Positions 8,880 to 27,016 of a stretch of DNA of 64,000 bases are shown in pieces (position 1 is the stretch's first letter; the number at the start of each line of letters is the position of its first letter). A program made the translations under genes and the position numbers. The stretch is taken from the NCBI GenBank assembly GCA_040901985.1, contig JBBDYC010000008.1:240490-304489 (forward strand). Reading direction: 5' to 3'. The notes below the pieces were generated by a model. The model was not told where the DNA came from. It saw only the letters and a program-made list of their open reading frames with translations, and searched no databases. The stretch comes from Gemmatimonadaceae bacterium. Lineage in GTDB: Bacteria > Gemmatimonadota > Gemmatimonadetes > Gemmatimonadales > Gemmatimonadaceae.

Positions 8880-8907
8880 CGGCGGCTCCAGGGGTGGTCT
8901 TGCCCAA

Positions 8908-8935
8908 TCTACGGAGCCGCCGACTCGCGGGTTTC
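8908..8935 (-). promoter_or_regulatory. Putative ECF promoter GAAACC-N16-CGTAGA
   Basis: 28 nt upstream of the 8879 start; same spacing as the motif before the ECF gene at 11823. Confidence 0.45.
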
Positions 8936-8937
8936 GC

Positions 8938-9741
8938 CTAGTGCCTCTCCAACCGGATGCTGCCGTTGACCGTCCGGGCCCGCAGCTCGGCGCCGCCGCT
9001 CCCGATGGACGCCCTGATGCGGCGCGGATTGATTGACCCCTCGAGCGTGAGCGGGAACTCCGACGAGATCCGCCCGTTCACGGTTCGCATCTCGACATTG
9101 GCGTTGGTGTTCGCCGGGAGTTCAATCGTGATGCTGCCGTTGACCGTCTCGTACTCGATGTCATCGTTGGCGCTGACCGTCGTGCGGACGGTGATCGAGC
9201 CGTTGACCGTCTCGGCGGAGACCCGCCCGGTGCTGGACCTCGCCTCAACATCACCATTGACCGTCCGCGCGCGCACTGCGCCGGTGGTGCCGGAGATGAT
9301 CAGGTCGCCATTCACGGTGCTTGCGTCCACCATCACGTGCGCCGGCACCCGCACCGTGAAGTCCACCGAGACATCGTTGCCGCGGCGCCAGTTGACGTCG
9401 TTCCCGCCGCGATAGTTGTCCACCTCGCAGCGGCCGCGGTCGTCCCAGAGGGCGCAGATCAGCACGTCCCCGTTGCCGCTCCCCGTCATCCGTGCCTCGA
9501 TGCGCACGTCGTCGGGGTCGCCGCGGCGCCACCGCTTCACGGCCCGGACCTCCACGGTGTTCCCGGTCCCCTGTTCGAAGCGGACCTCGCCATTCACGCT
9601 CCGCAGGTGGACCGTGCGGCCGTTGCCGATCTCGCCGGTCCAGTTCCAGGTGGTGCTCTCCTGCTGTGCGCCGGCCGTCGCGGCGACGGCGGCGAGGGCG
9701 AGGGCGACGAGCGCCGCTCGGGTCACGATGCGATTCTGCAT
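8938..9741 (-). CDS. DUF4097 beta-strand-repeat secreted protein
   Basis: Signal peptide MQNRIVTR..AGA; repeated TVNG units. Confidence 0.88.
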   Translation of the reverse strand: MQNRIVTRAALVALALAAVAATAGAQQESTTWNWTGEIGNGRTVHLRSVNGEVRFEQGTGNTVEVRAVKRWRRGDPDDVRIEARMTGSGNGDVLICALWDDRGRCEVDNYRGGNDVNWRRGNDVSVDFTVRVPAHVMVDASTVNGDLIISGTTGAVRARTVNGDVEARSSTGRVSAETVNGSITVRTTVSANDDIEYETVNGSITIELPANTNANVEMRTVNGRISSEFPLTLEGSINPRRIRASIGSGGAELRARTVNGSIRLERH

Positions 9742-9745
9742 TCCG

Positions 9746-10672
9746 CTACTCCCGGTTGCCCGTCGCGCCACCGCGACGGATGGTGATGCTGCCACTGAAG
9801 GCGCCGGCGATGACCCGCGCGCCGCCCGATCCAAGGGTGAACTCCATCCGTCGGTTCCGCCGTCCGGTCCCCTCGCCGGGCAGGAGCGTGAGCGGGAAGT
9901 CGGAGCTGATGCGCCCGCTGAACGTCTCGAGCTCAAGTGTGGCGCCGACGTTGGCCGGCAGCGTCAGCACGACGCTGCCGGAATGCGTGTTGATGCGGTA
10001 CGAGCCGGTCGGCGAGAGCGGACCTTCATAGGAGATGCTGCCGCTCACCGCCGACGCCCGGATGCCGTCGAGCTGGCTCCGCCGCAGCGCAATCGTGCCG
10101 CTGACGCTCTCCACGCTCGCATCGCCGCTGGCATTGCTCACGCTGATGTCGCCGCTCACGGTCTCGATCCTCAGCCGGCCGCTGACGTTGCGCACGTCAA
10201 TCTCCCCCGACACGCTCGATGTCTCGATCCGGTCCACGGCGTCGTGCACGGTGATGTCGCCGCTCGTCGTGCGCGCGGTGACCTCGGCTCGCGTGGCCCG
10301 GATGTCAATGCTGCCGGAGACGCTCGTCGCGGTCACCCGCGTGCCGATCGGCACGCTGACCTCGTACCGTCCGGTTCCCATCCGTCCGCCGACCGCGCGC
10401 GCGGTGATGGACGCGCGGCCGGGCGTGAAGCTCCGCTCGAGGCGGCCGCGCTCGAGCGTCGCACTGATGTGGACGTCGGGCCGCTGCGAGCCGACGACGC
10501 GGATCTCGCCGCTGACGAGGCCGAGGTGCACGGCACCGCCGCGGCCGAGGACCACCGTGGTGTCAATGCGGTCGCCGTCGCGCTGGGCGTGCGCCGCGTT
10601 CGGCGCTCCGAGCAGCAGGAGCGCTCCGGCGATGACGATCGTTCCAGGGAAGTGCGGCGTCAGTCGGTCCAT
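9746..10672 (-). CDS. DUF4097 beta-strand-repeat secreted protein
   Basis: Signal peptide; repeated SVSG/TVSG/TFSG units. Confidence 0.88.
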   Translation of the reverse strand: MDRLTPHFPGTIVIAGALLLLGAPNAAHAQRDGDRIDTTVVLGRGGAVHLGLVSGEIRVVGSQRPDVHISATLERGRLERSFTPGRASITARAVGGRMGTGRYEVSVPIGTRVTATSVSGSIDIRATRAEVTARTTSGDITVHDAVDRIETSSVSGEIDVRNVSGRLRIETVSGDISVSNASGDASVESVSGTIALRRSQLDGIRASAVSGSISYEGPLSPTGSYRINTHSGSVVLTLPANVGATLELETFSGRISSDFPLTLLPGEGTGRRNRRMEFTLGSGGARVIAGAFSGSITIRRGGATGNRE

Positions 10673-10675
10673 CGG

Positions 10676-11254
10676 TCAGATCCCGGTCGGGAGCGTCGCC
10701 GCTTCCCGCAGGAGGGTGATCTTGCTGGTGTAGGCGCGCGCGAACTGCGCGGCGAGGAATTGGCTGGATGGATCGGCCGCGAGCGCCTTGCGACTCTCGG
10801 CGATCGCGCGGTCAATCACGCGGAGGTTCGCCTGCAGCACCGCGAGGGTACGCGGGTCGAGGACGTCACGTCGCTCGGCCACGAGGCCCTGGAGGAGCGC
10901 GATCTCCTCGTCCATCGTTGTCACGCTGGCGTCGAACGCGGCCAAGTGGAGCGCCGCCGCCGTCTCGTCGTCCACCGTGGCGGCAAGGCCCGGCGCGCCG
11001 GCGGTCGCCGACGGCGCGCGCGTGGCGATTGTCCAGGTGATCCCGGACGTCACCGCGACGAGGAGCGAGGCGGCGACGAGCAGTCGCAGGCCGTTGTTCC
11101 AGCCGGGGAGGCGCGTCGGCCGCGCGGCGCGCGGCGGCGCCTGGCCAATCCGCGCCGCGATCCCCGGCCAGAGGTCGCGCGACGGCGTCAGCGGCGGGAG
11201 CTGCCTGGCCTCGGCCGCAATCCGTTCGAGTTCGATGTCGTCGTGGTCGGTCAT
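10676..11254 (-). CDS. Putative membrane anti-sigma factor
   Basis: PSRDLWPGIAARI, TM helix, helical C-terminus; ATGA overlap with the ECF gene. Confidence 0.75.
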   Translation of the reverse strand: MTDHDDIELERIAAEARQLPPLTPSRDLWPGIAARIGQAPPRAARPTRLPGWNNGLRLLVAASLLVAVTSGITWTIATRAPSATAGAPGLAATVDDETAAALHLAAFDASVTTMDEEIALLQGLVAERRDVLDPRTLAVLQANLRVIDRAIAESRKALAADPSSQFLAAQFARAYTSKITLLREAATLPTGI

Positions 11255-11823
11255 CGGTCCAGCATCCTCCTCAGGAGCATCCGGGCGCGGTGCAGTTGGG
11301 CCTTGCAGCCCCCGGCGGTCACGCCCAGCATCTCTCCAATCTCCTCGTGAGTGTAGCCCTCGACATCGTGCAGGACAAAGACCCGTCGGGCGCCTGGTGG
11401 CAGGGTGGCGATCGCCTGCTCGAGGTCGAGCGAGAGTCCGGGAACCGGGAGCGCCCTGACCTCCCCCGCCGAAATCGTGTCCATATCGTCAATGCCATCG
11501 TCGTGCCGTGTCCGTCGGCGCCCCTCGGCCTCGCGCTCGTTCAGCACCACGTTCACCGCCAGCCGGTGGAGCCAGGTGCCGAACGCCGCGTCGCCGCGGT
11601 AACTCGCCAGCTTCTCCCACGCCCGGACAAAGACGTCCTGCGTGAGCTCCTCCGCCCGTCCCCGGTCGCCGACCATCCGCACGCAGAGCGAGAAGACCCG
11701 GTCCACGTGCGCGCGGTACACCCGTTCGAAGGCGCGGCCGTCGCCGGCGGCGGCGAGCGCGACATCGTTGGGCGGCGGACCGGATGACCGGCGGGTGGGA
11801 AGGAGTGGCAGGGGCAGGGTCAT
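11251..11823 (-). CDS. ECF RNA polymerase sigma factor
   Basis: AEELTQDVF, FGTWLHRLAVN, LPPGARRVFVLHDVEGYTHEEIG, KAQLHRAR. Confidence 0.95.
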   Translation of the reverse strand: MTLPLPLLPTRRSSGPPPNDVALAAAGDGRAFERVYRAHVDRVFSLCVRMVGDRGRAEELTQDVFVRAWEKLASYRGDAAFGTWLHRLAVNVVLNEREAEGRRRTRHDDGIDDMDTISAGEVRALPVPGLSLDLEQAIATLPPGARRVFVLHDVEGYTHEEIGEMLGVTAGGCKAQLHRARMLLRRMLDR

Positions 11824-12450: not shown

Positions 12451-14568
12451 GCAGGAGGAGAGCAACGAGGCGCGGCGGGGCGGACTCCATCGGCACGTGG
12501 GTCGCCCGGTGGTGCTGCGCACCAGGCGAGCACGCGACCAAGCCTGACGCGAAGGCAGCGGGGTCGCGGGTGGTGCGGACCAACTGACGGAGGCGCTGTG
12601 TCGTGCCGGCGCCCGGGCACGCCGCGAGTGAACGGAACGCCTCGTGAAGCTGCGCGGCGAGGACGGCGCGCGCGGCGAGCGGTGCCGCGGCCAGTGCTGC
12701 ATCAACGCGCCGACGCGCCGTCCGCCAGAGCTGATTGTCCGCGCCCCTCGCCGGGCCGACCTCACGATCCGCCTCGCGGCGCCGTCCCCAGGCGATCAGC
12801 GCCCGGCGCGCGCATTGATGCGCCTCGGGGTCCACCGCCCGCTCAGTCCCATCGGCACACTCGAGCATCGTCAGCAGCGCCTTTGGGGCATCGCTGACGC
12901 GGCAGCCACCGCGCCCGCAGCGGCCGGTGACGACTTGGGTCGTCGCGCCGCGTCGGAGCGCGGCAATGAATCCGTCCGCCGTGGCCTCGATCGCAGCGAC
13001 GCGTGCGTTGCACCGGGGTTGCTGCGACCAGCGCCGAAGCCTCGACCCGATGGCCTCGACGACGTCGGTCACCGATATCGCGGCGGTACGGACCGTCTCC
13101 TTCTGGCGGAGACGCGCCTCGAGTCGCAGGATGGCGCGGGCGCCGGCGGGCGCGCGGAACTGCGTGACCAGCACCTCGCGCCCGCCCCAACACGCGCCAG
13201 ACGCCCGAGCCGCTGCTCCAGTCGCGCCGGCGTCCAGGCGCCGTCGCCGTGCACAAGGATTCGCGCGCCCTGCAGCTCGACCCCCTCGGCAAGCAGGTCA
13301 GTGGCGAGGACAAGGCGGATCGCACGCGGATCGTCCGCACTCCACGGTTTGCCGTGCGCTCCGAGGGCGTCGAGCACCTCGGCGCGCCGCCATCGGCCGC
13401 CGGCGGCAAACACGCGCGCACCGGTCAGGGCGACGACGCCCCCGACGTGCCGTAGCGCGCGCCAGAGCGCACGGATGGTCTCGGCGTGGTGGGCGAAGAC
13501 GACCACGCGCTCCCGGTGTCGGGAGTCGAGAATCCGGCGCAACGATGCGGCGCGCGTGGCGGTGTCCGTGGCGACCGCTGGCGCAACGACCGCGCGCAGG
13601 TCGCGCACGGCCACCAGGTGCGCGCGCAGCAGGGTGAGCGCCTCGGCTGGCGGGGCGCGGTCCGTAGGTGCGGCCAGCGCGGGGAATGCGAGCTGAGTGG
13701 CGTCGTCGGCCACGATCCACTGGCGAAGTGACGCGCGATCCGGCCATCGGCCGGCGCCGAGCGCGTCGGCGAGCGCCGCGCCGCGCTGGAGTCGCCGGCG
13801 GAGCGACGCATCGAGGGCGGCGAGACTCGAGCACCACGCCATTGCCAAGGAGATACGGATGAGCGCACGCGCGGCAGCGCCGTCGGCGGCCGGGAACGGC
13901 GGCGGCAACCGGGCGATCGCCGATCCGATCCCGCGGACGTCGGCCGCGCTGGCGAGGGACGCGAGTCGCCGGACCACGGGGAGGTGCGACCGCTCGGCCT
14001 GTCGCCTGATGATCAACTGCGCGAGCGTCGCCGCATCGAGCGCCGCGGCACGCCCGCCGAGGAAGAGCGCGAGGAGCGCGTCACGATCGGCGCGGCGATT
14101 CACCACGGGCGTGGCGGTGAGGAGCAACACCCGCGCTCCACTCGCGAGTCGCGCCGCCTGTTGGTAGCGTAGGGTCCCCGGGGTGCGCAGGTGGTGCGCC
14201 TCGTCAACGATCAGCAGCGGCGCGCGCGTCGGGTCTGCGGTGCGGCTCAACGCCTCGAACGATGTGAAACGGACCCGTGCCCCTGCCCGCGCCGCCGAGC
14301 GCTCCCACTGTGTGCGCAGCACGGCCGGCGCGAGCACGAGAGCGTCGTCGAAACGGCGGGCGATTGCCAGCGCGATGACGGTCTTGCCCGTGCCAGGCGG
14401 GTCGGCGAGCAAGGCGCCGCCCGATCGCTCGAATGCCGTCTCAATCGCGGCGATTGCCTCGCACTGGGCTGGCCGGAGCGTGAATCGCCCCGCGGTGGCG
14501 GCGGACTGCTCACCGAACCAAGCGAGCGCCAGACGGGCGCGGACGGCCGCCGCGGCCCCCAACGTCAC
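12392..14568 (-). pseudogene. SF2/SNF2-like helicase split by an apparent frameshift near 13175-13190
   Basis: LADPPGTGKT, VDEAHH, LTATPVVN, VVVFAH, ATDLLAEGVELQ, EQRLGRLARVG; continues in another frame as EVLVTQFRAP..; GTG start overlaps the MTase TGA. Confidence 0.75.
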
Positions 14569-17500
14569 AACGCGTACCACGACAGGAGCGGCGCCAGGTC
14601 GGTATGGCGCACGCCGTACGCGTCGAGCGCCAGTGTGGTCAGCGTCCACGGGTCCGGCACATCTCCCGCTGCCGCAGCGCGCCCGATCGGCGCGAGGAGC
14701 GCGCGCGCCCGCTCCCAGCGCAGCGGCACCGGGAATCGCGCCGTGGTCCAGCCGAGGAAGCGGCGGTATCCGCCACGCGCGGGTTCGGCGATTGCCGCGA
14801 GCCACGCGGCGCCCACGGGTGAATTGAACAGCACCGCCAGCGCGTGCGCATCGTCTTCGGTGCGCGTCCGCACCACGTAGCAGGTGTTCAGCGGCACCGT
14901 CAGGTCGCCGGCGCGGAGTACCAGCGCTCGGGGCGCGCGGCCGATGTCCGCCCAGACGACGCGTGGGCGGTCTGCCCTCGCGGCCTCCGTGCGAAAGAGC
15001 GCCCACCACGGCCCGTGCCGTCCGTCGGTGCGCAGTTCGAGCGCACGCCGCCACCGCACGAGCCAGCGTCGTGTCGCGGGCGGGAGCGCCGCCAGCGGCT
15101 CCCCGAGCGCGCCGTGCGTCCAGATCAAGGCCTCAGACTTCGCGTCGGCGGCGATGCCCCAGGGCTGGACGTGCTCGCCGCGCAGCAGTGGACGCAGCCG
15201 ATCCGTCTCGAGCATCTGGCGAGCCGCCTCCTCGGGCGAGACGATGAACGCGGCATTGCAGCCGCTCTTCACCCCAAGCAGCGGCCGTCCGAGCGCCGAC
15301 GCGGCGAGCGGCACGCCCGCCATCGTCAACAGGTCGAACGCGGCGCGCACTTCCGGGGGGAGAATCAACCACGGGGCACCGACGGTCGCATCAAGCGCGA
15401 GGGCGGATCGCGAGATCTCCCAGGAAAGCGCCTGCTCCCCTCGGTGCACGGTCATCGTGAGTTCGGCGGTGCCGGACGCGCGGCGGGCGATGAGCGCCGA
15501 CGGATAGACCGCGGCCTCGAACCCTGCCGTGGCGCCGCTCCACTCCTCGAGCACCAACGGAGGTGCCTGCCTGGTGAGCAGGGCTCGCACGCCGCCACCG
15601 GCCAATGCGATCCAGAGTTTCGCCGGCAGGAGCAGCGCGACGCACCCGGAGTCCGCGGTGAGACGGACCGCGCGTTCGGTGAAGAGTGCGGCGAGGTCCG
15701 CCTGCCCCGCGAACCCGCGTCCCGCTGCGGCCGCCTCGGCGCCGGCGCGCCAGGCGGCGTCACGGAAGGTCACGAACCGCGCGCGGAGCGCGTCGCGCAT
15801 CTCAGCCGGGATCGCGTGCGTCCGAACCCAAGGCGGGTTGCCAATCACGAGCGAGAAGCCGCCCGCTCGTGCTGCCTCCGGAAAGTGCGTCACGAACGAA
15901 AAGGGGAGGGCGCCGCCGCTGCGCAGGTCGGCAAGCAACGACCGCGCGCGCCGCACGCCAGCCCGGCACGCCTCGAGCGCCGCGCGCGTCGCGTGGTCCA
16001 GCCCTCGCCGTGCCTGAAAGAGATCCGGCGACCGCGCCGCGGCGAGCAGCTCGCGTCGCGACGCACTGAGCTGCGCGACGCGCTGCCCGACCACCTGCAT
16101 CGCACGCTGGCGCTCCTCTCGGTCGAGCGCGCGGGCGAGCGTACGCTTCCGGGCGCCGCTGGCGCGCGAATACCGGAGTCGCAGGCCCTCGACCCGCGCG
16201 TCGCGCACCGGCTCGCCGTCGGCGAACCCGTCCCCGGCCAGCGCATCGCCTTCCCGCACGTTGCGGTCGAGGTTCGGGAGAGGCGTCAGCTCGCGTGGGT
16301 CCTCGACGGTGTCGTCCACCACCACCGAGAGCCAGAGGCGCAGCTGGCAGAGCCAGACGGCGGTCGGGTCGCGGTCCACGCCGAAGATGCTCGACGCGAG
16401 CACCGCACGCCGCCGCGCCGCGACATCGCGCCGATCGCCGGCGGCGCCGTGCAGGGCGGCCAGCTCCTCCAGCGCAAAGACGAGGAAGGCCCCCGATCCG
16501 CAGGCGGGGTCGAGCACGCGAAGTCCGACGAGCGCCGCCCGCAGCGCCGCGCGCACCGCGGGCGTCAGGGTCGCGCCGGCGCGTGCCGCCTCGAGCATTC
16601 CGGCGTCAACGCCCCGCGGCGCGAGCAGGTGATCGAACGCCGATCGGGTGAGCCGCGCGATCAACGGCGGCGGCGTGTAGAACGCGCCCTGCGCGCGCCG
16701 CGTCTCGGCGTGCATCAGCGACTCGAAGGCGCGGCCGAGCATCTCCGGGTCCACCGCCGCGTCCGACCACGCGGCCGACGTCTCGCGCGCCGTGAGTCGG
16801 TAGCGAGCGAGGAGGCCCCCGATCACTTCGCCGAGGGCGTCGTCGGTGAACCGAAGGGAGCGCCAACGGCGCTCGACCGCCGTGCGGGTGAACAGCCCAC
16901 CATTCAGGAACGGCACGCGTCCGAACGCACGCGCTGCCGCCGCGCGGTGCCGGCTGGGCGTGTTCAGCGTGCCGAAGAAGAGCGGCTCGAGGAACCGGCG
17001 GTGCGCGCCGCGTCCGCCCGTGCAGCGCTCGAGATGCGTGCGGAGGAACTCACGCTCGCCGGCCAGCCAGCCGCGCGGTTCGAGAAAGGCCAGGAAGAGC
17101 AGCCGCGAGACGTGCAGCAAGGCGATGGTGCGGCGCTCCCGGTCCGGCGCCCCGCCTTCCGCCGTCTGCGCCAGCACGCCGACGCGCTCCTCGAGTTCGC
17201 GGTAGAACCGGCGCGAGAGGGCATCGCGGCCAAGGGTCTCGCGCCACCGTCGGTGAATCATCAGGTCCAGCGTCTCGCCGCACCCCGCCAGCGCGGCGAA
17301 CGTCTCGGCGTCGCTCTCGCGCACGGCGGCGGGATCCACCTCGAGTGCGGCGATCGGAGCGCCGCCGCCCGGCGCCGGCGCGGCGATGATCAATTCCCCG
17401 CGCGCGGCCCTCCGCGCAACGAGGAGCCAGAGCAACTCGGGCGCCTCGCGCGTAAGTTCCCGACAGACCGCCGCCGCCCGCTCCCGGGCCGCCTGGCCTC

Positions 17501-17708
17501 CGCTGAACTCCGCGCAGAGCACGCGCAGCATTCCGGTGCCGGCGGCGACGCGGACGCGCGTGCTGTCGAACGCCAGACCGAACCGCCGGCGCTGGGCGAC
17601 GTCGAGCGGGTGAAGGGTACCGAGGCCGAGCGCGGCAACGAGCGGCGCGAGCGAGCCGGGTCCACGCGTCTGGGCCAGGAGCCGGGCGGCGTCGCGCGTG
17701 GTGAGCAC
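14565..17708 (-). CDS. Large N6-adenine DNA methyltransferase (Eco57I/TaqI-like, gamma class) with C-terminal TRD
   Basis: VPFLNGGLF, DPEMLGRAFE, GAFYTP, VLDPACGSGAFL, GNPPW, RPLLRGE, NTCYV; GTG start assumed. Confidence 0.9.
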   Translation of the reverse strand: MLTTRDAARLLAQTRGPGSLAPLVAALGLGTLHPLDVAQRRRFGLAFDSTRVRVAAGTGMLRVLCAEFSGGQAARERAAAVCRELTREAPELLWLLVARRAARGELIIAAPAPGGGAPIAALEVDPAAVRESDAETFAALAGCGETLDLMIHRRWRETLGRDALSRRFYRELEERVGVLAQTAEGGAPDRERRTIALLHVSRLLFLAFLEPRGWLAGEREFLRTHLERCTGGRGAHRRFLEPLFFGTLNTPSRHRAAAARAFGRVPFLNGGLFTRTAVERRWRSLRFTDDALGEVIGGLLARYRLTARETSAAWSDAAVDPEMLGRAFESLMHAETRRAQGAFYTPPPLIARLTRSAFDHLLAPRGVDAGMLEAARAGATLTPAVRAALRAALVGLRVLDPACGSGAFLVFALEELAALHGAAGDRRDVAARRRAVLASSIFGVDRDPTAVWLCQLRLWLSVVVDDTVEDPRELTPLPNLDRNVREGDALAGDGFADGEPVRDARVEGLRLRYSRASGARKRTLARALDREERQRAMQVVGQRVAQLSASRRELLAAARSPDLFQARRGLDHATRAALEACRAGVRRARSLLADLRSGGALPFSFVTHFPEAARAGGFSLVIGNPPWVRTHAIPAEMRDALRARFVTFRDAAWRAGAEAAAAGRGFAGQADLAALFTERAVRLTADSGCVALLLPAKLWIALAGGGVRALLTRQAPPLVLEEWSGATAGFEAAVYPSALIARRASGTAELTMTVHRGEQALSWEISRSALALDATVGAPWLILPPEVRAAFDLLTMAGVPLAASALGRPLLGVKSGCNAAFIVSPEEAARQMLETDRLRPLLRGEHVQPWGIAADAKSEALIWTHGALGEPLAALPPATRRWLVRWRRALELRTDGRHGPWWALFRTEAARADRPRVVWADIGRAPRALVLRAGDLTVPLNTCYVVRTRTEDDAHALAVLFNSPVGAAWLAAIAEPARGGYRRFLGWTTARFPVPLRWERARALLAPIGRAAAAGDVPDPWTLTTLALDAYGVRHTDLAPLLSWYAL

Positions 17709-17889: not shown

Positions 17890-17930
17890 TCAGGCGGGCC
17901 CGGGGCCTCCCTGGCCCCGGGCCCGCCTGA
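17890..17930 (-). terminator. Perfect 18-bp GC hairpin, probable terminator (no U-tract)
   Basis: TCAGGCGGGCCCGGGGCC-TCCCT-GGCCCCGGGCCCGCCTGA, 10 nt after the stop of the 67-aa gene. Confidence 0.75.
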
Positions 17931-17940
17931 CTGCGATCGC

Positions 17941-18144
17941 CTAGAAGCCGAAGTCCGGCGGAGGCGGTGGCGGCTTGGTCGTGTCCGGGGGACCCGGGTT
18001 GGGGTCGTACTGGAATCGGTTGTACTCGATCCAATCCGTAAATAACTCCTGCCGGAGCCACTTCGCGGTGCGGTAGTCGCGAATCCCAAGGTAGAGCACC
18101 ACGACGCCGATCAAGACGATCGCAATCTTCCAGCCCTTATGCAT
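17941..18144 (-). CDS. 67-aa membrane-anchored/secreted peptide with Pro-rich C-terminus
   Basis: GGGGG before ATG; MHKGWK + hydrophobic 15-mer; ends DPNPGPPDTTKPPPPPPDFGF; followed by hairpin. Confidence 0.75.
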   Translation of the reverse strand: MHKGWKIAIVLIGVVVLYLGIRDYRTAKWLRQELFTDWIEYNRFQYDPNPGPPDTTKPPPPPPDFGF

Positions 18145-18177
18145 ATGCCCCCCGGTTGACGAGTGATGACGATCGGG

Positions 18178-21003
18178 TCATCGCCGTGGGCCTGTCACGC
18201 GGGCCCGAGTGAGCTGCCGTAGCTGGAGCCGGTACGCCGCCGCCTGCGCCCGGCGCTGGAGGGAATCGGCGGCGCTGGCGCGCACCGCGAGGCTGCGCGG
18301 CAGGAAGTTCACGAAGAGGCTCGGCTCCGGATGGTCAAAGACCGCGGCGACGTCCAACGCGCGTTGGTACTCCCCCCGCGCCATCAGCAGCTCGGCGAGG
18401 AGCATCCGCTCGACCGCCAGCGGCTCGAAGAAATCGTAGGTGAGTTGATCGCGTCGGGCCGTCGGCCGAAGCGCCTCGAGTCGGCGGATTGCCTCGGCGG
18501 TGTCGCCTTGGACGAGGGGGACGCGCGCCGCGACAGCGTCGCGCAACAGCGCGAGTCGTGGGACCTCCGGCGCCGAATCGGCAGACGCGGCGAGGCGCGC
18601 CGCAATCCGCTCCACCGGCGCCCGATCGCGACGATGCGTGTGCCACGCGGCGAGGAGCCACTGGGTCACCGCGCCGGCGCCAGCGTACCCTGCGCCGAAG
18701 CGCTCGCGCGAGTACTCGACCACCCCGTCGGCCTGCGCGTGGTACGGTGCGCCCGCCAGCGCATTCACGACGTGGAGATACAGCACCGCACTGATGCCGG
18801 CGGTGCGCGCGGAGTCGAGCATCTGCAGTGCCGCCGCGTGATCGCCCAACGCAACCAGTTGGCCGTGCAATCCAAGAAAGGCACCCCACCTCACGCCGGC
18901 GTCGGGCGCGTTGACGAGGAGCGTGCCAAACCCATCCGTGGCGCACTCCGTATGCTCGGGGGCGAGGGCGAGCACCTTGGCCGTGCCGAGCGCCGCCGCC
19001 GCGTCCTGCGCGACGAATGGCCCCCACGGCGCCCGCGACGGATCCCGAAGGCAGTCGCGGAAGATGCCGAGCGTCCGCATCCACGAGGCGTCGGCGCCAG
19101 CCAGGCGGAGGCGCGCGTAGTACCGGTCGAGCGCGGCGAGGTCGCCGCGCCGCGCCGCCGCCTCGGCGAGGTGCATCAGCGGCGGCGTGAAGGTGGTGTC
19201 GCGCGCCGCCGCCGTGTCGAAGTACGCGAGGGCCACGACCTGCGGCGCAAGCGTCGCCGGGAGGAGGTGATAGTGGACCTCGCCAAGGGCCATATGCGCC
19301 TCGTCCCAGTCGGGCGCCAGCGCGAGTGCGGCGCGCAACAGCGTGACGGCGCTGTCGGCACTGCCCGAGAGGTAGGCGCTCAGTCCTGCGGCGAAGGGTC
19401 GGTACTGGGCGGGGAGGGCGGCCTGGTGGTCGAGTGCGCGCTGCGCCAGCTGCCGCGCGCGGTCGAGGCGATTCAGCCAGCTCGCTGCCTGGGCGGCGCG
19501 GATTGCCGCGTAGGCGAAGGTCGAATCCTCGGCGTGGGCGCGCTCGAACAGTTCGAGCGCGCGCGTGAAGCGCGCCGCGCGATACTCCCGCTCGCCCTGC
19601 GCCTGCAGGGCGAGGGCCGCCGGGGCCACGTTGAGCAGGGGCGCGAGATCGCGGACACGGCCGGGCGCGAGCCAACGCAGCAGCAACTTGCGCGTGGCCT
19701 CGAGGCCGAGCGCGGTGAGGTCGGCCGGCGCGGCCGCAGCGGCGCGCTCGATGGCGACCACCGTGTCGGCGCCCGCGTCATAGAGGCGGAGCACCACCGC
19801 CTCGTCGGCGCCGCTCCGCTGGATCGTGCCGTCAATGAAGTAGCGCACGCCGTTCTTCCGCGCGAGACGACGCGCCATCGCCGCGTCGAGTCGGGCCGGG
19901 TCGGCGCGCGTGGCGGAGTCGAGCCAGTCCCAGCCGTGCCGCCAGGTGATCGGGCGGGCGTGGTCGAGCGCCAGCTCGATGGCGTACGCGATGTCGTCAG
20001 GCACCGCCGCCGTCGCGCTCGCGGTCGCCGGGTCGCGCACCGGAAAGACGGCAATCGCATTGCCATCGAGCGGCGTTGCCGTGGCAAGGACGGCGACCGC
20101 GAGTGCCGCAACTGCGATGCCGGCCGCCGCCATCGCCCGCCGCGACTTCAGGAACGCAAGGGGCGTCACCGGGCGCGTCAGCGCCGCCACGAACCGTGGC
20201 GCGTCGGGGTAACGGTCGGCGGGGCTCTTGGCCAGCACCCGCGCGACCGCCTCGGCCAGCGGCGCCGGGACCGTCGGCCGGAGCGTACGCAGCGACGGCG
20301 CCGGCTCGACGCGGTGCCGGGCGATGATCGCCTGCGCCGTCCGCCCGAGGAATGGCGGATCACCGGCGAGCATTTCAAAGAGCACGATGCCTAGCGAGTA
20401 GAGGTCGCTCCGTCCGTCAATCACCGCGTCGGCGTCCGTCTGTTCCGGACTCATATAGGCCGCGGTGCCGATGACGAGCCCCTCGCTCGTGAAGCGTTCG
20501 GTCGCCGCGCGCGTCACCGCCCGGGCAATCCCGAAGTCGGCGAGGATCGCCACCCCGTCGGCCAGCAGGATGTTCTCGGGCTTCACGTCGCGGTGCACGA
20601 TCCCGGCGCGGTGCGCGTGTTCGAGCGCGCCGGCGATCTCGACCGTGATCCGCAGCGCCTCGTCCACCTCGAGCTGCCCCTCCGCCCGCAGGCGATCGCG
20701 AAGCGTGGGACCGGCGACGTACGGGAGGACGCAGTACGGCAGGTCGCCGACGCGTCCCGAGTCGAGGATCGGCAGGATGTGCGGATGCTGCAGGCGCGAC
20801 TCGATCTGGATCTCCTGCAGGAATCGCTCGACGGTCACCGCGACGGCAATTTCCGGGCGAAGCACCTTGATCGCGACTTCGCGGGAGTGCCGGAGCTCGG
20901 TCGCCTGGTAGATCAGGCTCATTCCTCCACGGGCGATCTCGCGCGTCACGGTGAACCGACCCGCCAGATGCGCCGCGAGCGTGGCCTGGAGGTCGTCGCT
21001 CAT
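18178..21003 (-). CDS. Hanks-type Ser/Thr kinase with TM, TolB-like domain and TPR-like repeats
   Basis: ARGGMS, VAIKVL, HRDVKPEN, DFGIA, YMSPEQ, DLYSLG; TM AMAAAGIAVAALAVAVLA; helical repeats. Confidence 0.93.
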   Translation of the reverse strand: MSDDLQATLAAHLAGRFTVTREIARGGMSLIYQATELRHSREVAIKVLRPEIAVAVTVERFLQEIQIESRLQHPHILPILDSGRVGDLPYCVLPYVAGPTLRDRLRAEGQLEVDEALRITVEIAGALEHAHRAGIVHRDVKPENILLADGVAILADFGIARAVTRAATERFTSEGLVIGTAAYMSPEQTDADAVIDGRSDLYSLGIVLFEMLAGDPPFLGRTAQAIIARHRVEPAPSLRTLRPTVPAPLAEAVARVLAKSPADRYPDAPRFVAALTRPVTPLAFLKSRRAMAAAGIAVAALAVAVLATATPLDGNAIAVFPVRDPATASATAAVPDDIAYAIELALDHARPITWRHGWDWLDSATRADPARLDAAMARRLARKNGVRYFIDGTIQRSGADEAVVLRLYDAGADTVVAIERAAAAAPADLTALGLEATRKLLLRWLAPGRVRDLAPLLNVAPAALALQAQGEREYRAARFTRALELFERAHAEDSTFAYAAIRAAQAASWLNRLDRARQLAQRALDHQAALPAQYRPFAAGLSAYLSGSADSAVTLLRAALALAPDWDEAHMALGEVHYHLLPATLAPQVVALAYFDTAAARDTTFTPPLMHLAEAAARRGDLAALDRYYARLRLAGADASWMRTLGIFRDCLRDPSRAPWGPFVAQDAAAALGTAKVLALAPEHTECATDGFGTLLVNAPDAGVRWGAFLGLHGQLVALGDHAAALQMLDSARTAGISAVLYLHVVNALAGAPYHAQADGVVEYSRERFGAGYAGAGAVTQWLLAAWHTHRRDRAPVERIAARLAASADSAPEVPRLALLRDAVAARVPLVQGDTAEAIRRLEALRPTARRDQLTYDFFEPLAVERMLLAELLMARGEYQRALDVAAVFDHPEPSLFVNFLPRSLAVRASAADSLQRRAQAAAYRLQLRQLTRARVTGPRR

Positions 21004-21025
21004 CGGCGGCGCGGTGGAGGCCGGT

Positions 21026-21778
21026 TCACGGCATACCGATGCTGACGCTGCCGCAGACCGTGGGGGCCGTCGCCGAGCACGCGCGCACGGTCACGGTGCC
21101 GCGCGACACTCGGGTGATCCGGCCGTCCGCCGTCACGGTGACCGCCGCCGCTGCCGACGACGACCAGATGACATCCTGCCGCACCCGCAGCGGGCCGTGC
21201 ACCTCGGCCGCCAATTGCGCGGAATCGCCGAGCGCCAGCACCCTGACCGGACTGCGCACGCTCACCGAGGTCGCCGGATCGGCCGCGTCGAGCCGTAGGA
21301 CGAGCGCCGTCACTTCGCTCGGCCAGCCGAGGGCTCCTGCCGCGCCGTAGCCCGCCGCCTCGTGCAGCGCCGCGCGCGCGGCGGGCGTGTCAATGGCTCG
21401 GATTGCCCACGCCGCCCGTTGCTGCGATTCGCTGAGGAGGTTGCGGAGCGCCCGCGAGAGCATCACGGCCGAGTCGGAGAGCCCGTGGCCCCTGAAGATC
21501 GTGTCGAGCGCGGCGGCGCGTTCCGCCAGCCGACGTTCCTCCCACACCTGGGCAAGGAAGTTCTGCTGGTGTGGCCACGCCGCGCCGCGATACAACGCGA
21601 CGACCAGCGGCTCGAGTGCGGCGTCGCCGTGCGCGACCACGCGCGCGAGCTCCGTCGGACACTCCTCGCACGTCAACCAGGCGGCGACGTCGCCGCGCGG
21701 GTCCGCGCAGGCGACGCCTGCCAACAAGGCGAGCGCCACGCGGAGCGGGTGCGCCGCCAGACGTCGGGACATCGTCAC
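21026..21778 (-). CDS. Lipoprotein with helical (HEAT-like) region and C-terminal Ig-like (Big_2) domain
   Basis: Lipobox VAC; CEEC; WSSS...VTVTADGRIT..GTVTVRA; GTGA overlap with the upstream gene. Confidence 0.75.
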   Translation of the reverse strand: MTMSRRLAAHPLRVALALLAGVACADPRGDVAAWLTCEECPTELARVVAHGDAALEPLVVALYRGAAWPHQQNFLAQVWEERRLAERAAALDTIFRGHGLSDSAVMLSRALRNLLSESQQRAAWAIRAIDTPAARAALHEAAGYGAAGALGWPSEVTALVLRLDAADPATSVSVRSPVRVLALGDSAQLAAEVHGPLRVRQDVIWSSSAAAAVTVTADGRITRVSRGTVTVRACSATAPTVCGSVSIGMP

Positions 21779-23151
21779 CATCCGGGGGCCTCACAGAATG
21801 CGGCGGACGCCCCGAGGCGCCCGCCGGCGTTGGCGATTGGCCGCACGTCGCGGGACAGGAGTCCGCAGGCGCCCGCATAGGGGTCGCAGCCACAATCCAG
21901 CTGGGGCGCCGCCGCCGCGGCGAAGAAGGAACGCGGATCGAAGTGCATCCGGTACACCTGGCCGAGCGAGAGCCGGGTCCGCGCGGCGGTGGTCTCCAGA
22001 TTCACGCGTCCCCACATCAAGTTGTCCTTCGCGAAGCCCTTGATGGCATCTACGTGACCGGTGTGCCGCCCATTCTCGCCCCACGGAACGACGAGCCCCG
22101 CCAGATGGCCGAGCTCGTGGGCCAGCGTGCTCGGCAGCGCATTCGGCTGGATGCGGATGACGTTGTGCGGTGCGTCTGACCCTTCCGGCGGCCAGCAGTA
22201 CTGGCCACGCGCTTCCGTGAAGGCGTCCATCACATAGACGTTGATCGCGTTGGGGTCCCAGAGATCGGGAGTCGAGCCGGTGCCGGCGATGTCACCGTCG
22301 AGCGCAATCTCGTCAAAAAGCGTGCTGCAGTTGATGGCCGACGACAGGAGGACCTTCGGCGGCGCGATGCGCTGGACGACCAGGCCGGCGCGCGCCGCGA
22401 ACAAGATGCCGTTCGCCACGCCGATCGCGTCGTCCATCTGCGTGGCACGATTGGCGAGGATGGTCGCGACCTCGCCAGCGCTCAACCCCGCGGCGGCGAA
22501 CATCTCCTCGTGGCGGAGCAGCCAGATCCGCAACTTCGCCGGCCGCCAGACGGCCGCCGTCGGGAACGGCTGGTCGTCCGCCGCATCGGTCCACGGCTGC
22601 CCGCGAGCCGGCGCCGCATAGCCGGTGAGCGCAACCAAGTCCGTCGGGACGCACGCCTGGCCACGCGCGGCGAGCGACCCGCCGCGGACAAACGACACCG
22701 TATGGTCGCTGGGGCAGACTCCGTCGCCACCTATGGTCAGGAGCACGCTGGGAATCACGTGGTCCTGTGCCGTGGCCCGATCGCCACTCGGGACGACGAG
22801 ATCCACCACCAGTTGATCCGTGCGGCCGCCAGCCCGGACCTCGACCGTGACCCGCCCCGAGGAGGCGGTGGGCATGGTGATGCGAGCGTCGCGTCCGTTC
22901 GCCCCGGTCGTGATCGCCACGCCGGGCGCCGAGGTGTGCCAGGTGATCGGCTCGTCAATGAGGTCGCCGCCCTTGTTCTTTCGATACCGCGCCCGGGCGT
23001 CGAAGGTCGCGGTGGTCGCGCTGGCGTTGTTGACGGCGATCTGCACGCGGGTCGGGAAGACCTCGACTTGCTTGCAGGCAATCGGGGTCAGCGCGAGCGC
23101 GACGACCAGCGCGCGCGTCACTGGTTGGGACAACAATCGTGACGTTGCCAT
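21775..23151 (-). CDS. Lipoprotein with Ig-like domain and metzincin-type zinc metalloprotease
   Basis: Lipobox IAC; AINVYV, LAHELGHLAGL, later His and DNLM Met-turn. Confidence 0.8.
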   Translation of the reverse strand: MATSRLLSQPVTRALVVALALTPIACKQVEVFPTRVQIAVNNASATTATFDARARYRKNKGGDLIDEPITWHTSAPGVAITTGANGRDARITMPTASSGRVTVEVRAGGRTDQLVVDLVVPSGDRATAQDHVIPSVLLTIGGDGVCPSDHTVSFVRGGSLAARGQACVPTDLVALTGYAAPARGQPWTDAADDQPFPTAAVWRPAKLRIWLLRHEEMFAAAGLSAGEVATILANRATQMDDAIGVANGILFAARAGLVVQRIAPPKVLLSSAINCSTLFDEIALDGDIAGTGSTPDLWDPNAINVYVMDAFTEARGQYCWPPEGSDAPHNVIRIQPNALPSTLAHELGHLAGLVVPWGENGRHTGHVDAIKGFAKDNLMWGRVNLETTAARTRLSLGQVYRMHFDPRSFFAAAAAPQLDCGCDPYAGACGLLSRDVRPIANAGGRLGASAAFCEAPGW

Positions 23152-23401: not shown

Positions 23402-24568
23402 ATGGACGCGCGAACGGCCACCGGCCAGAAGGGGCAGGCCTCTGCCGACCTCCGACAACACGACGGCACCCTCGTCGCCGAGCTCGCGGGCACGTGGCAG
23501 CTTGAGTACGCCACCCCGCGGTTCGAGCCGTTGATTGAGGCCGCGCTCGCCGACGGGAACCTGCCGCACGCGACAAACCGTACGATCGGGTTTGATGGCA
23601 CGGCGCTCGGCGAATGGGACAGCAGTCTGCTGATTTTCCTGCGCCAAGGGCAGGAATACTGCGAGTCCAATGGCTACACGTTCGACACCGCAGGCCTGCC
23701 GGGGCGGATTACCCAGCTGCTCTCGCTCGCCAACGTCGTGCCGGAGCGGAGCGTCGAGGCCGGGGCGCCAGAGCCCTCAAACGTTGCGCAGATCGGGGTC
23801 GTCGGCATCGCGGCGTGGGACTCCGTCGTCTCCGCGCTGACGTTCCTCGGCGAGGTGGCCCAGGGTCTCGTCCGGCTGCTCACCGGCAAGACCCGGATGC
23901 AGTGGCGCGCCTTCTGGGTCGTCGTCCAGTCGAACAGCTCCGGTGCGCTCCCCATCGTCACGCTCATCGCAGTGCTGCTCGGCGTGATCATCGCCTTTCT
24001 CGGCGTGGTCGTCCTGCAGCGCTTTGGCGCCGGCTCCTACGTGTCGTACCTGGTCGGCTACGGGATGCTGCGCGAGATGGGCGCCCTGATGACCGGCATC
24101 ATCATCGCGGGTCGCACCGGTGCCGGCTTCGCCGCCGAGTTGGGGAGTATGAAGATCACCGAGGAGTTGGACGCGTACTCCACGCTCGGCATCTCGCCGA
24201 TTGACCATCTCGCGCTTCCGCGCCTCCTGGGGCTCTTCGTGATGATGCCCCTGCTCGTGGTGTACGCGGATTTCATCGGCATCCTTGGCGGAATGTTCGT
24301 CGCGGTCTCGTTGCTGGACCTCACGGCCACGCAGTTCACGACCGGACTGCTGTCCGCGGTGAGTCTTTCCGACGCGCTGCTCGGCGTGTTCAAGGGGATG
24401 ATTTTCGGAGTGATCATCGGACTGTCCGGATGCTTTCAGGGCCTGCGCACCGGTTCTGACGCGAGCGCGGTAGGCCGGTCGGCAACAGCGGCCGTCGTGC
24501 TCGGCATCACGCTGATCATTGTCGCGAACGCCGTGGTGGATTGGATGGCGGCGCTGTGGCACGTATGA
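23402..24568 (+). CDS. mlaE: MlaE-family ABC permease with N-terminal STAS-like domain
   Basis: WDSSLL STAS-like region; LREMGALMTGIIIAGRTGAGFAAELGSM..EELDA. Confidence 0.9.
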   Translation: MDARTATGQKGQASADLRQHDGTLVAELAGTWQLEYATPRFEPLIEAALADGNLPHATNRTIGFDGTALGEWDSSLLIFLRQGQEYCESNGYTFDTAGLPGRITQLLSLANVVPERSVEAGAPEPSNVAQIGVVGIAAWDSVVSALTFLGEVAQGLVRLLTGKTRMQWRAFWVVVQSNSSGALPIVTLIAVLLGVIIAFLGVVVLQRFGAGSYVSYLVGYGMLREMGALMTGIIIAGRTGAGFAAELGSMKITEELDAYSTLGISPIDHLALPRLLGLFVMMPLLVVYADFIGILGGMFVAVSLLDLTATQFTTGLLSAVSLSDALLGVFKGMIFGVIIGLSGCFQGLRTGSDASAVGRSATAAVVLGITLIIVANAVVDWMAALWHV

Positions 24569-25329
24569 CAAACGGCACCCCACCGGTCGAGGTGACGAAC
24601 CTGACGATGCAGTACGGGTCGTTGGTGGTGATGAACGATCTCACGTTCGCGGTCAAGCGCGGCGAGGTCTTCGTCATCATGGGCGGGAGCGGCAGCGGAA
24701 AGAGCACCCTGCTCAAGTATCTCGTCGGGCTCCGGACGGCCGCCGCCGGCGCGGTCCGCATCAATGGCGAGGACCTCACGGCGGCGGACGTCGAGACGCG
24801 CCGGCAGAGTCTGCGTCGCATCGGCGTGCTGTATCAGGGGGGTGCGCTCTGGAGCGGGCTTACGCTCGCCGAGAATGTCGCGCTGCCGCTCGAGGAGCTG
24901 TCGGATCTCGACGCGGCGGCGATCGCCGAGGTCGTCGAGCTCAAGCTCGCGTTGGTCGGCCTGCGCGGGTACGGTGGGTTCTATCCCAGCGCCATCAGCG
25001 GCGGGATGCGCAAGCGCGCCTCGCTCGCCCGCGCCATCGCGTTGGATCCCGACGTGCTCTTCTTCGACGAGCCGTCGTCGGGGCTCGATCCCATCAGTGC
25101 GAGCCGACTCGACGACCTGATCATCGCCCTCGCCGAAAGCTTTGGCACGACGATCGTCGTCGTGACGCACGACCTGGCCAGCATTTTCCGGATCGCCGAT
25201 CGGGCGCTCTTTCTTGACATCTCGCAGCGGACGATGACCGCGCTTGGGCCTCCCGCCGAGCTACGCGACAATCCGCCCAACGACGAGGTCCGTCGGTTCC
25301 TCACCCGCGACAGTGGGAGCACTGTATGA
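24565..25329 (+). CDS. mlaF: MlaF-family ABC ATPase
   Basis: GGSGSGKS, ISGGMRKR, FFDEPSSGLDP. Confidence 0.93.
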   Translation: MTNGTPPVEVTNLTMQYGSLVVMNDLTFAVKRGEVFVIMGGSGSGKSTLLKYLVGLRTAAAGAVRINGEDLTAADVETRRQSLRRIGVLYQGGALWSGLTLAENVALPLEELSDLDAAAIAEVVELKLALVGLRGYGGFYPSAISGGMRKRASLARAIALDPDVLFFDEPSSGLDPISASRLDDLIIALAESFGTTIVVVTHDLASIFRIADRALFLDISQRTMTALGPPAELRDNPPNDEVRRFLTRDSGSTV

Positions 25330-26318
25330 GCGTACGCGCAAATCCGACGGCGATCGGGGCATTTATGATCGGCGCCGTTGCCATCGTCATCGTCGGCACG
25401 GCCGTGCTGGCGTCGGCCACCTGGTTCGAGAGGCGATCCACCTTTGTCGGCTTCTTCAGCGAATCCGTCAACGGACTCGAGGTCGGCGCCCCGGTGAAGT
25501 TCCAGGGCGTGCCGGTTGGCACGGTGACGGGAATCCAGATTCAGATTGACCGGGAGGAGAGGACATTCCAGGTGCCCGTGCGGTTCGACGTGAATCTCCG
25601 GATGCTCGAGACGGTGCGGGGGTCGTTCATGAACCTCGCGGATTCGGCGGAGCTCGCGCGGCAGATCGCCGAGGGCTTCCGTGCGCAGCTCCAGATGGAG
25701 AGCCTCGTGACCGGCCAGCTCTACCTCGAGCTGAGCTATGACACTGCTGCCGCGCCACCCGTGCTCGAGCCGCACGTCACCAGGTGGCCCGAGATCCCGA
25801 CCACGCCGTCGCTGATGTCCGCGCTCGGTACCGGGGCCGGCAGCGTCGTGGCCGATGTGATCAAGGTGCTCTTCCAGGTGAATGAGATCTTGGCGGAGAT
25901 TGATATGCCGGAGATCAACACGGCAGTCGTGGCGACGGCACAGTCCGTCCAATCGCTGGTGAATGCGCCGGAGATCCGCGCCGCGCTGGCACAGGTTCCC
26001 GCCGTGACCGCCCAGGTCACACGCACGATGGCGGCGGTCGAGACCTTTGCAACGACGGCAGAAGGCGCGGTCGGGCCGATCGGCGTCCAGGTGGAGCGCG
26101 CCACGACCGAAATGGCGAACGCGCTGACCTCGTTGCGGAAAACGCTTGAGGAGACCCATGGGCTGTTGTCCACGGATTCCGGCATCGGGTTCGAAATCCA
26201 GGCGGCGCTCTCGAGCCTCACGGAGGCCGCCAATGCATTGCAGTTGCTAACCACGACCATTGAGCAGAGCCCTGACATCCTGCTGCGCGGCAAGAAGCCG
26301 CCGGAGAAACAGCCATGA
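25326..26318 (+). CDS. mlaD: MCE/MlaD-domain protein
   Basis: SVNGLEVGAPVKFQGVPVGTV; N-terminal TM; helical tail. Confidence 0.9.
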   Translation: MSVRANPTAIGAFMIGAVAIVIVGTAVLASATWFERRSTFVGFFSESVNGLEVGAPVKFQGVPVGTVTGIQIQIDREERTFQVPVRFDVNLRMLETVRGSFMNLADSAELARQIAEGFRAQLQMESLVTGQLYLELSYDTAAAPPVLEPHVTRWPEIPTTPSLMSALGTGAGSVVADVIKVLFQVNEILAEIDMPEINTAVVATAQSVQSLVNAPEIRAALAQVPAVTAQVTRTMAAVETFATTAEGAVGPIGVQVERATTEMANALTSLRKTLEETHGLLSTDSGIGFEIQAALSSLTEAANALQLLTTTIEQSPDILLRGKKPPEKQP

Positions 26319-27016
26319 CCCGCGCACCCGGACGGACCTCTCTCTCCCTCGCGATGGCAGCGCTCGTTGTCACGGGATGCTTCAAGCTTTCTCGCACCTC
26401 ACCACCGGTGGAGCGGTACGTGCTTGGCGGTGCCGTCGCGGCGCCGGACGAATCGCTCCAGCGGGATTCGGCCGGCCTCTCAATCGGACTGCGGCGACTC
26501 GACCTCGCGCCGTATCTCTCGACACTCGCCATCGTGGTGCGTCGGGCTGACAACGAGATCATCACCACCGGATTCCACCGGTGGGCCGAGAGCCCGAGTG
26601 CCGGATTGAATCGCGCGGTGTCCGGGTATCTCGCCGTCTCGCCCGGCATCCGTGCGGTGGACGTGGCTCCGTGGCCGGTCCGCGCCGAGCACGATTACCT
26701 CGTGCAACTGCACGTGTCGCGGCTGGAAGGCGTGGCGGCCGGCGGTGCTGCCGCGAGAACGGGTGAGTCGCATCTCTTGGCGCGGTGGGAGATCATCCGG
26801 CCGGGCGACGGCGCGTTGGTCGCGCGCGGGGCGACCGATTACCGCTCCCCCGACTGGGTCCTCACCGACTATGCCGGGCTCGTGTCGCGGTTGGATCGCG
26901 GACTGGTGGTGCTGGCGAAGGATCTGGTGGCGTGCCTGGCGCGGCTCGGGCCGGCAGTGCCGGCGGACAGCGTGGCGGGCCCCGCCGCGCCGACGCTGGA
27001 GTGTGCGGCGCGGTGA
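26315..27016 (+). CDS. pqiC: PqiC-family auxiliary lipoprotein
   Basis: Lipobox VTGC; LAPYL, HRWAE motifs. Confidence 0.85.
   Translation: MTRAPGRTSLSLAMAALVVTGCFKLSRTSPPVERYVLGGAVAAPDESLQRDSAGLSIGLRRLDLAPYLSTLAIVVRRADNEIITTGFHRWAESPSAGLNRAVSGYLAVSPGIRAVDVAPWPVRAEHDYLVQLHVSRLEGVAAGGAAARTGESHLLARWEIIRPGDGALVARGATDYRSPDWVLTDYAGLVSRLDRGLVVLAKDLVACLARLGPAVPADSVAGPAAPTLECAAR

Follow-up and report, generated by a model that had tools for sequence, protein, structure and literature searches.

We describe here a four-gene module from a Gemmatimonadaceae bacterium, in which a receptor Ser/Thr kinase is encoded next to a zinc protease of the metzincin fold, a likely accessory lipoprotein and a small Pro-rich peptide. 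The module is located on a stretch of 64,000 nt (GCA_040901985.1, contig JBBDYC010000008.1, 240,490-304,489 of the forward strand), which is referred to as the window in the following. A survey of related genomes showed that the module is real and conserved. On balance, and with moderate confidence, we favour the reading that the Pro-rich peptide is released by the protease and serves as a ligand, which would activate the kinase via a predicted periplasmic ectodomain with tetratricopeptide repeats (TPRs). The locus comprises the following features:

21775-23151, minus strand: metzincin-fold zinc protease (458 aa), likely a lipoprotein, with an N-terminal Ig-like domain, HExxH at residues 345-349, H366 and M379
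21026-21781, minus strand: likely accessory lipoprotein (gene 2; 251 aa) with a HEAT-like WxxCxxC domain and a C-terminal Big_2 Ig domain
18178-21003, minus strand: Hanks-type receptor Ser/Thr kinase (941 aa) with cytoplasmic kinase domain, one transmembrane (TM) segment and large ectodomain
20077-20133, minus strand: TM segment of the kinase, residues 291-309, with a basic kinase-side flank
18181-20070, minus strand: predicted periplasmic ectodomain, a TolB-N/PelC-like alpha/beta domain followed by a TPR solenoid, with invariant C651/C687 and conserved W509, Y544, H579, H611, W660 and W782
17941-18144, minus strand: precursor of 67 aa with basic N-terminus, TM anchor (about residues 7-21), amphipathic Trp helix and Pro-rich tail
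17944-18006, minus strand: Pro-rich tail, residues 47-67, the predicted ligand core
17890-17930, minus strand: perfect 18-bp hairpin with a 5-nt loop, without U-tract, single copy

The original prediction for this locus had described four tightly spaced minus-strand genes closed by the hairpin, and the coordinates of the open reading frames (ORFs) bear out the spacing. The metzincin gene and gene 2 overlap by 7 nt when counted from the ATG (4 nt, GTGA, from the next GTG), a gap of 22 nt separates gene 2 from the kinase gene and a gap of 33 nt lies between the kinase gene and the small ORF; a gene model based on hexamers and trained on the source genome predicts all four ORFs. The hairpin is likewise present. 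Its single copy in the genome led us to reject a repetitive extragenic palindromic element. It lacks a U-tract and a terminator call, so that closure of the operon is no more than plausible; the hairpin likely represents the 3' end or a stabiliser of the transcript.

Homologous loci were collected with the kinase ectodomain, which defines a subfamily. Among 300 genomes of the order, we obtained 65 matches at E <=1e-46 in 57 genomes, a lower bound given that four candidates per genome were scored, while a scan of GTDB yielded 80 loci, 77 of them titled Gemmatimonadota. Removal of 16 duplicates and 7 truncated loci from the GTDB set left 57, which together with 61 other loci (the 60 best order-level loci and the window) gave 118 distinct loci. 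A profile search with the ectodomain returned 1825 clusters at E up to 1e-30, in which other TolB/TPR kinases may be included. Within the genus, the distribution of the kinase is patchy (5/55 genomes).

It had been suggested to look for small Pro-rich ORFs behind homologous kinases, and a lack of conservation there had been named as an observation that would refute the proposal; such ORFs were indeed found. Under a strict rule (35-160 aa, a ribosome site, a start <=130 nt past the kinase stop and >=4 Pro in 8 residues), 40/61 and 36/57 loci qualified, i.e. 76 of the 118, compared to 22 of 1076 genes of the genome and one of 20 weaker TolB/TPR kinases used as controls (a low-complexity false match; five of these controls are poorly anchored). 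When the misses were read by eye, a small ORF was recognised after the kinase in about 105 of the 118 loci. The source genome (2.64 Mb) has 27 Hanks-type kinase matches, 26 besides the kinase studied here, and TolB/TPR, beta-propeller and formylglycine-enzyme-like folds occur among their C-terminal regions. A small ORF as a generic property of the phylum's kinases was rejected, as none was present among the source-genome paralogues listed and the only match among the controls was the false one.

The 67-codon ORF itself looks coding, judging from a hexamer score of 33.8 (model trained on this genome) and its GC content by codon position (0.56/0.41/0.84). Synonymous exceeded non-synonymous differences (pS > pN) in all 14 of 14 precursor pairs, and this selection on the relatives, together with the control loci and genes, led us to reject a shadow-frame artefact of high GC. 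A relative in public assemblies is 64% identical and ends in the same tail, the peptide at another locus (L206) is a near architectural twin, and searches of Pfam and NCBIfam gave no family match. The previously claimed peptide with TM anchor and Pro-rich tail is thus backed by TM prediction, coding score and a close relative. Across loci, the N-termini of the precursors vary and comprise TM anchors, lipoprotein signals, prepilin-like leaders and Lys-rich leaderless forms; the recurring parts are the Trp helix and the Pro-rich end. The prepilin-like leaders (L142:7916-8164 and L150:7918-8166) suggest processing by a prepilin peptidase or pilus-type export. Precursors in L075, L077 and L083 consist of two units with internal Pro8-10 runs and a helix after each.

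Which enzyme would release the peptide? Within 5 kb of the kinase, we found a metzincin in 35, a C14 caspase-like protease in 21 and an S8 subtilase in 15 of the 118 loci (71/118), compared to 0/20 controls. Three unrelated protease classes fill one slot and are interchangeable, and the form of the precursor tracks the protease class. Lipoprotein or TM precursors occur in 19/35 metzincin loci, in 8 protease-free loci and, after correction of one automatic call, in 0/36 C14/S8 loci (27/118 in all). A signal or lipobox segment is present in most metzincins and absent from the C14 and S8 enzymes. In 20/21 C14 loci, the precursor is an Arg-delimited polyprotein of Arg-ended units, mostly 11-14 residues long, with Pro in 123/123 and internal Arg in 9/123 units. 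As we chose to split the repeats at Arg, their Arg ends are partly given by construction, and the delimitation is supported by the constant period of the repeats and by how seldom Arg occurs within a unit. Differences between the units (58/54/281 at codon positions 1/2/3; 231 synonymous versus 91 non-synonymous) show that they are under purifying selection. The C14 caspases keep the His-Cys dyad, with Asp-x-Cys, as well as the acidic residues that form the S1 pocket in metacaspases. Basic P1 residues are preferred by characterised caspase homologues (PMC8283722).

Several side observations concern the same loci. Module versions with S8 protease, metzincin or none share the hslU-argF site in related genomes (L044, L048, L050, L055, L058, L074), like an exchanged cassette. 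In L070, L088, L089, L179, L183, L191 and L200, the caspase is fused to DUF7379 (alpha/beta hydrolase-like), in some cases additionally to DUF4384, and a second caspase or a CHAT protein is often encoded directly after it. Long histone H1-like Lys/Arg-rich N-termini precede the Pro core in L081, L177, L178, L182, L193, L196 and L197, which have none of the three proteases nearby and are nested in the caspase clade.

The tracking of precursor form and protease class, and the strict co-occurrence of the HEAT-like protein with the metzincin, would also fit a peptide that acts on the protease, as an inhibitor, a decoy or a pro-segment in trans, with the kinase sensing the protease or the accessory lipoprotein. 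We regard this as highly improbable: the peptide gene keeps its place right after the kinase gene no matter whether the protease is encoded upstream, downstream, on the other strand or not at all, and it is retained with each of the three unrelated protease folds.

A multi-core precursor, a protease and a modifying enzyme are also the logic of ribosomally synthesised and post-translationally modified peptides. On such a reading, the kinase would phosphorylate Ser/Thr residues of the precursor, the protease would release a modified bioactive peptide and the ectodomain would sense something else. Ser/Thr is found next to the Pro run in 81/96 cores, and leaderless precursors as well as C14/S8 proteases share the cytoplasm with the kinase domain. 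However, 15/96 cores, including whole repeat units, contain no Ser/Thr, so that a conserved modifiable residue is absent, and the tails of the 27/118 lipoprotein or TM-anchored precursors, that of the window among them, are predicted to lie outside, beyond the reach of the kinase domain. Both findings weaken an explanation that we consider quite unlikely.

Split precursors were found 300-760 nt past the kinase stop in four protease-free loci (L074, L087, L204, L208). They consist of a Trp coiled-coil gene and a stand-alone gene for 21-29 aa of poly-Pro-Trp, which has its own ribosome site in all four; the gene pair is duplicated in L204. These stand-alone genes speak for the short Pro motif as the functional unit and bear on the main rival to our proposal, which assumes the same binding with reversed sign. 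According to it, the intact precursor, anchored or oligomerised, sits on the ectodomain and holds the kinase in one state, and the protease destroys this multivalent ligand, thereby relieving an inhibition or ending a signal. The conserved amphipathic Trp helix of single-core precursors could indeed oligomerise the tails, tandem repeats would give a similar multivalency, and the combination of an exported metzincin and a leaderless precursor suits degradation no less than release. Moreover, the periplasmic TPR region of the kinase PknS appears to inhibit autoactivation without stimulus (PMC13147305). Yet stand-alone Pro genes without a protease imply that the free short peptide is the active form, and near-identical, Arg-ended units of fixed length resemble products rather than a scaffold. 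We therefore rate this rival as unlikely.

The preferred reading, in which the freed peptide activates the kinase, relies on the architecture of the receptor. The kinase motifs are intact (VAIK, HRDVKPEN, DFG, SPE; Pkinase match 1e-42), and hydropathy predicts a single TM segment between kinase and sensor module, with an Arg-rich kinase-side flank kept in full-length homologues. An AlphaFold2 model of the ectodomain (pLDDT 93) shows an alpha/beta domain matching TolB-N and PelC, followed by a TPR solenoid. In fold comparison, the solenoid came closest to the TPR region with which PEX5 binds peptides (Z 18.7, rmsd 3.1, 201 aligned), and the matches also included the periplasmic domain of CadC; Foldseek returned generic TPR matches with a TM-score of at most 0.3. 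Given the basic kinase-side flank of the TM segment, the Cys pair C651/C687, invariant in 57/57 aligned sequences, and the fold matches to periplasmic TolB, PelC and CadC, the C-terminal TPR region is predicted to be periplasmic. The motifs, hydropathy and fold matches agree with the kinase with TM segment and large TolB-like/TPR ectodomain that had been proposed earlier. A cytoplasmic TPR region had been named as an observation that would speak against that proposal, and the same lines of evidence predict the region to lie outside the cytoplasm. In the ectodomain alignment, 15 columns are >=90% aromatic or His. Binding of polyproline-II peptides by a TPR domain via aromatic residues has a published precedent (PMC12433258).

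The metzincin carries the motifs HELGH (residues 345-349) and DNLM (376-379), and H345/E346/H349, N377 and M379 are invariant in 17/17 aligned family members. M379 represents the Met-turn and H366 is the probable third zinc ligand. The canonical spacing HExxHxxGxxH is absent: the conserved His follows the second His after 17 residues here; in many relatives the distance is about 11, and 2/17 lack this His. The structure model comprises an Ig domain and a metzincin fold matching ADAM/adamalysin and pappalysin (Z 10-11, about 165-175 residues aligned). With these enzymes, the protein has the catalytic fold, HExxH and Met-turn in common; it differs from them by an identity of only 12-17%, the displaced third zinc ligand and the lack of a family match in Pfam and NCBIfam. 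A sequence search of the PDB with the metzincin profile gave no E better than 0.005. Cys26 lies in an atypical lipobox, and the enzyme is likely a lipoprotein; motifs and fold matches thus confirm the metzincin called earlier, with its lipid anchor as the probable part. In 301 genomes, the family had 21 matches, 18 of them adjoining kinases of our survey, one a kinase fragment, one a contig end with a HEAT partner and one a degraded orphan; the source genome has a single copy. This is a metzincin family dedicated to the module and almost confined to these kinase loci.

Gene 2 had been taken for an Ig-domain lipoprotein, which holds for residues 170-237 (Big_2) only. Its N-terminal 150 residues are not Ig-like, but fall into a HEAT-like WxxCxxC family (E 3e-13, with gene 2 left out of the profile), which is present in 31/35 metzincin loci versus 0/83 other loci (partly self-hits). 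The source genome has one clear copy of the family, and a search of the ESM Atlas with gene 2 gave leads below 0.9 only. We predict an adaptor or inhibitor that travels with the metzincin.

At the locus in the window, the exported metzincin would cut the membrane-anchored 67-residue precursor and thereby set its Pro-rich tail free in the periplasm. The tail would then bind to the TPR groove of the co-encoded kinase ectodomain and likely trigger autophosphorylation of the kinase inside the cell, while the HEAT-like lipoprotein likely regulates the metzincin or presents the substrate to it. In relatives, a cytoplasmic subtilase or an Arg-specific caspase-like enzyme may perform the cutting step instead. 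The latter would convert the polyprotein into peptides of 11-14 residues, whose exit from the cell would require lysis or a yet unrecognised exporter. The shedding of an anchored precursor, as assumed in the original prediction, fits the window's locus, but applies to a minority of the family, most precursors being leaderless; as a whole, that prediction is partly supported, and the exchange of proteases and the Arg-ended repeats lend it backing beyond its original basis.

A number of observations weigh against our proposal. About 13 of the 118 loci lack a recognisable peptide gene, and in 47/118 no protease of the three classes lies within 5 kb of the kinase, some of the contigs being short. 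In one locus, a metzincin match is accompanied by a C14 match, three metzincin calls are based on short open frames and one C14 locus has a non-repeat peptide. The precursors are leaderless in about 12 metzincin loci and in all C14/S8 loci and no exporter gene that could bring the peptide to the ectodomain was seen in the loci. Among the single-core precursors, we detected no shared cleavage motif, and a conserved gene for a kinase substrate is lacking in the surveyed loci. On the ectodomain tree, loci with the same protease label group together (10 changes in 58 rows versus a shuffled mean of 27.9; quick tree), so that few independent events underlie these labels. The similarities of ectodomain and core correlate weakly (rho 0.25 across 96 loci, excluding 20 without usable peptide call), a value that co-inheritance alone would give.

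How does the module compare to known systems? RRNPP quorum sensing combines a co-encoded small precursor, proteolytic maturation and a cytoplasmic TPR receptor, which binds re-imported peptides and has an HTH or phosphatase output. The module resembles it in precursor, TPR receptor and, presumably, maturation. However, its TPR region is predicted to lie beyond the membrane and is coupled to a Ser/Thr kinase, which makes the RRNPP analogy drawn in the original prediction a poor one and places the module outside this group. The closest studied bacterial receptor is PknS (XAC4127) of Xanthomonas citri, which likewise combines a cytoplasmic Hanks kinase, a TM segment and a periplasmic TPR sensor. 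PknS has three TPRs and phosphorylates the extracytoplasmic function (ECF) sigma factor EcfK, and its signal is still sought (PMC13147305). By comparison, the ectodomain of the module spans 630 aa and includes a TolB-like domain, a candidate ligand and a protease are co-encoded, and an adjoining ECF sigma gene is not conserved: ECF genes lie near only 6/61 loci. DdvA/DdvS of Myxococcus xanthus also ties a periplasmic TPR sensor to caspase-clan proteolysis and defence. There, DdvA is a TM anti-sigma factor with a periplasmic TPR-CHAT region and its output is sigma release by intramembrane proteolysis; no kinase is involved and the abstract names no peptide precursor (PMC11506125).

Outside bacteria, the closest likeness is to plant phytocytokines. 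In PROPEP1-metacaspase MC4-Pep1-PEPR1/2, prosystemin-subtilase and pro-HypSys signalling, a precursor cut by a metacaspase or subtilase is read by a single-pass receptor kinase, and precursors are leaderless or secreted and in part multi-copy, with short Pro-rich products (PMC11371470, PMC12629630). In contrast to their leucine-rich repeat ectodomains, the module has a TolB-like plus TPR ectodomain, is bacterial and operon-encoded, and employs a metzincin at this locus. In the absence of leucine-rich repeats and of homology, which we do not claim, it would work like PROPEP1-MC4-PEPR and systemin/HypSys by analogy, without being a member of these systems.

The genes surrounding the module were inspected as well. 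At 13069-17708 (minus strand), an Eco57I-like methyltransferase (about 1047 aa) is followed by an SNF2/ResIII helicase; the methylase is present in 42/55 genus genomes and thus unusually stable for a gene of restriction-modification type. An MlaE(STAS)/ABC/MlaD/ABC_trans_aux operon at 23402-27016 (plus strand) is divergent from the module and patchy (11/55 genus genomes). Compared to 5/55 for the kinase, these distributions led us to reject both the methylase and the Mla-type ABC genes as parts of the module. A cluster at 8052-11823 (minus strand) encodes an ECF sigma factor, a zinc-type anti-sigma factor and several exported beta-helix-like proteins. In L049, L075, L077 and L083, the kinase gene has a similar ECF sigma/anti-sigma/beta-helix cluster upstream, a possible candidate for a phosphorylation target.

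PADLOC 2.0 gave no match for the metzincin, the HEAT protein, the ectodomain or the peptide, and generic caspase/CHAT matches in relatives only. We found no description of the module in the open literature searched, which does not prove absence; the module is apparently undescribed. Loci of the caspase clade include CHAT, nSTAND1-WD40 and TIR/TPR genes, which suggests an alarm upon damage or infection, although such genes often co-occur anyway. It is possible, though doubtful, that the module represents a bacterial cytokine system, in which proteases activated by damage or infection (caspase, subtilase, surface metzincin) free Pro-rich peptides that receptor kinases of the same cell or of its neighbours would perceive, convergent with plant PROPEP/Pep/PEPR danger signalling. 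In the caspase clade, an NLR-like sensor inside the cell would then be connected with an alarm passed from cell to cell.

Few Hanks-type receptor kinases of bacteria have a known ligand. Here, each kinase is paired with a candidate ligand and a maturing protease in one operon, providing about 100 natural receptor-peptide pairs for testing. The module further provides a candidate for a dedicated substrate of bacterial caspase-like proteases, and it adds a new family of metzincins. If our proposal is true, the precursor-protease-receptor kinase logic of plant peptide signalling would have evolved in bacteria as well.

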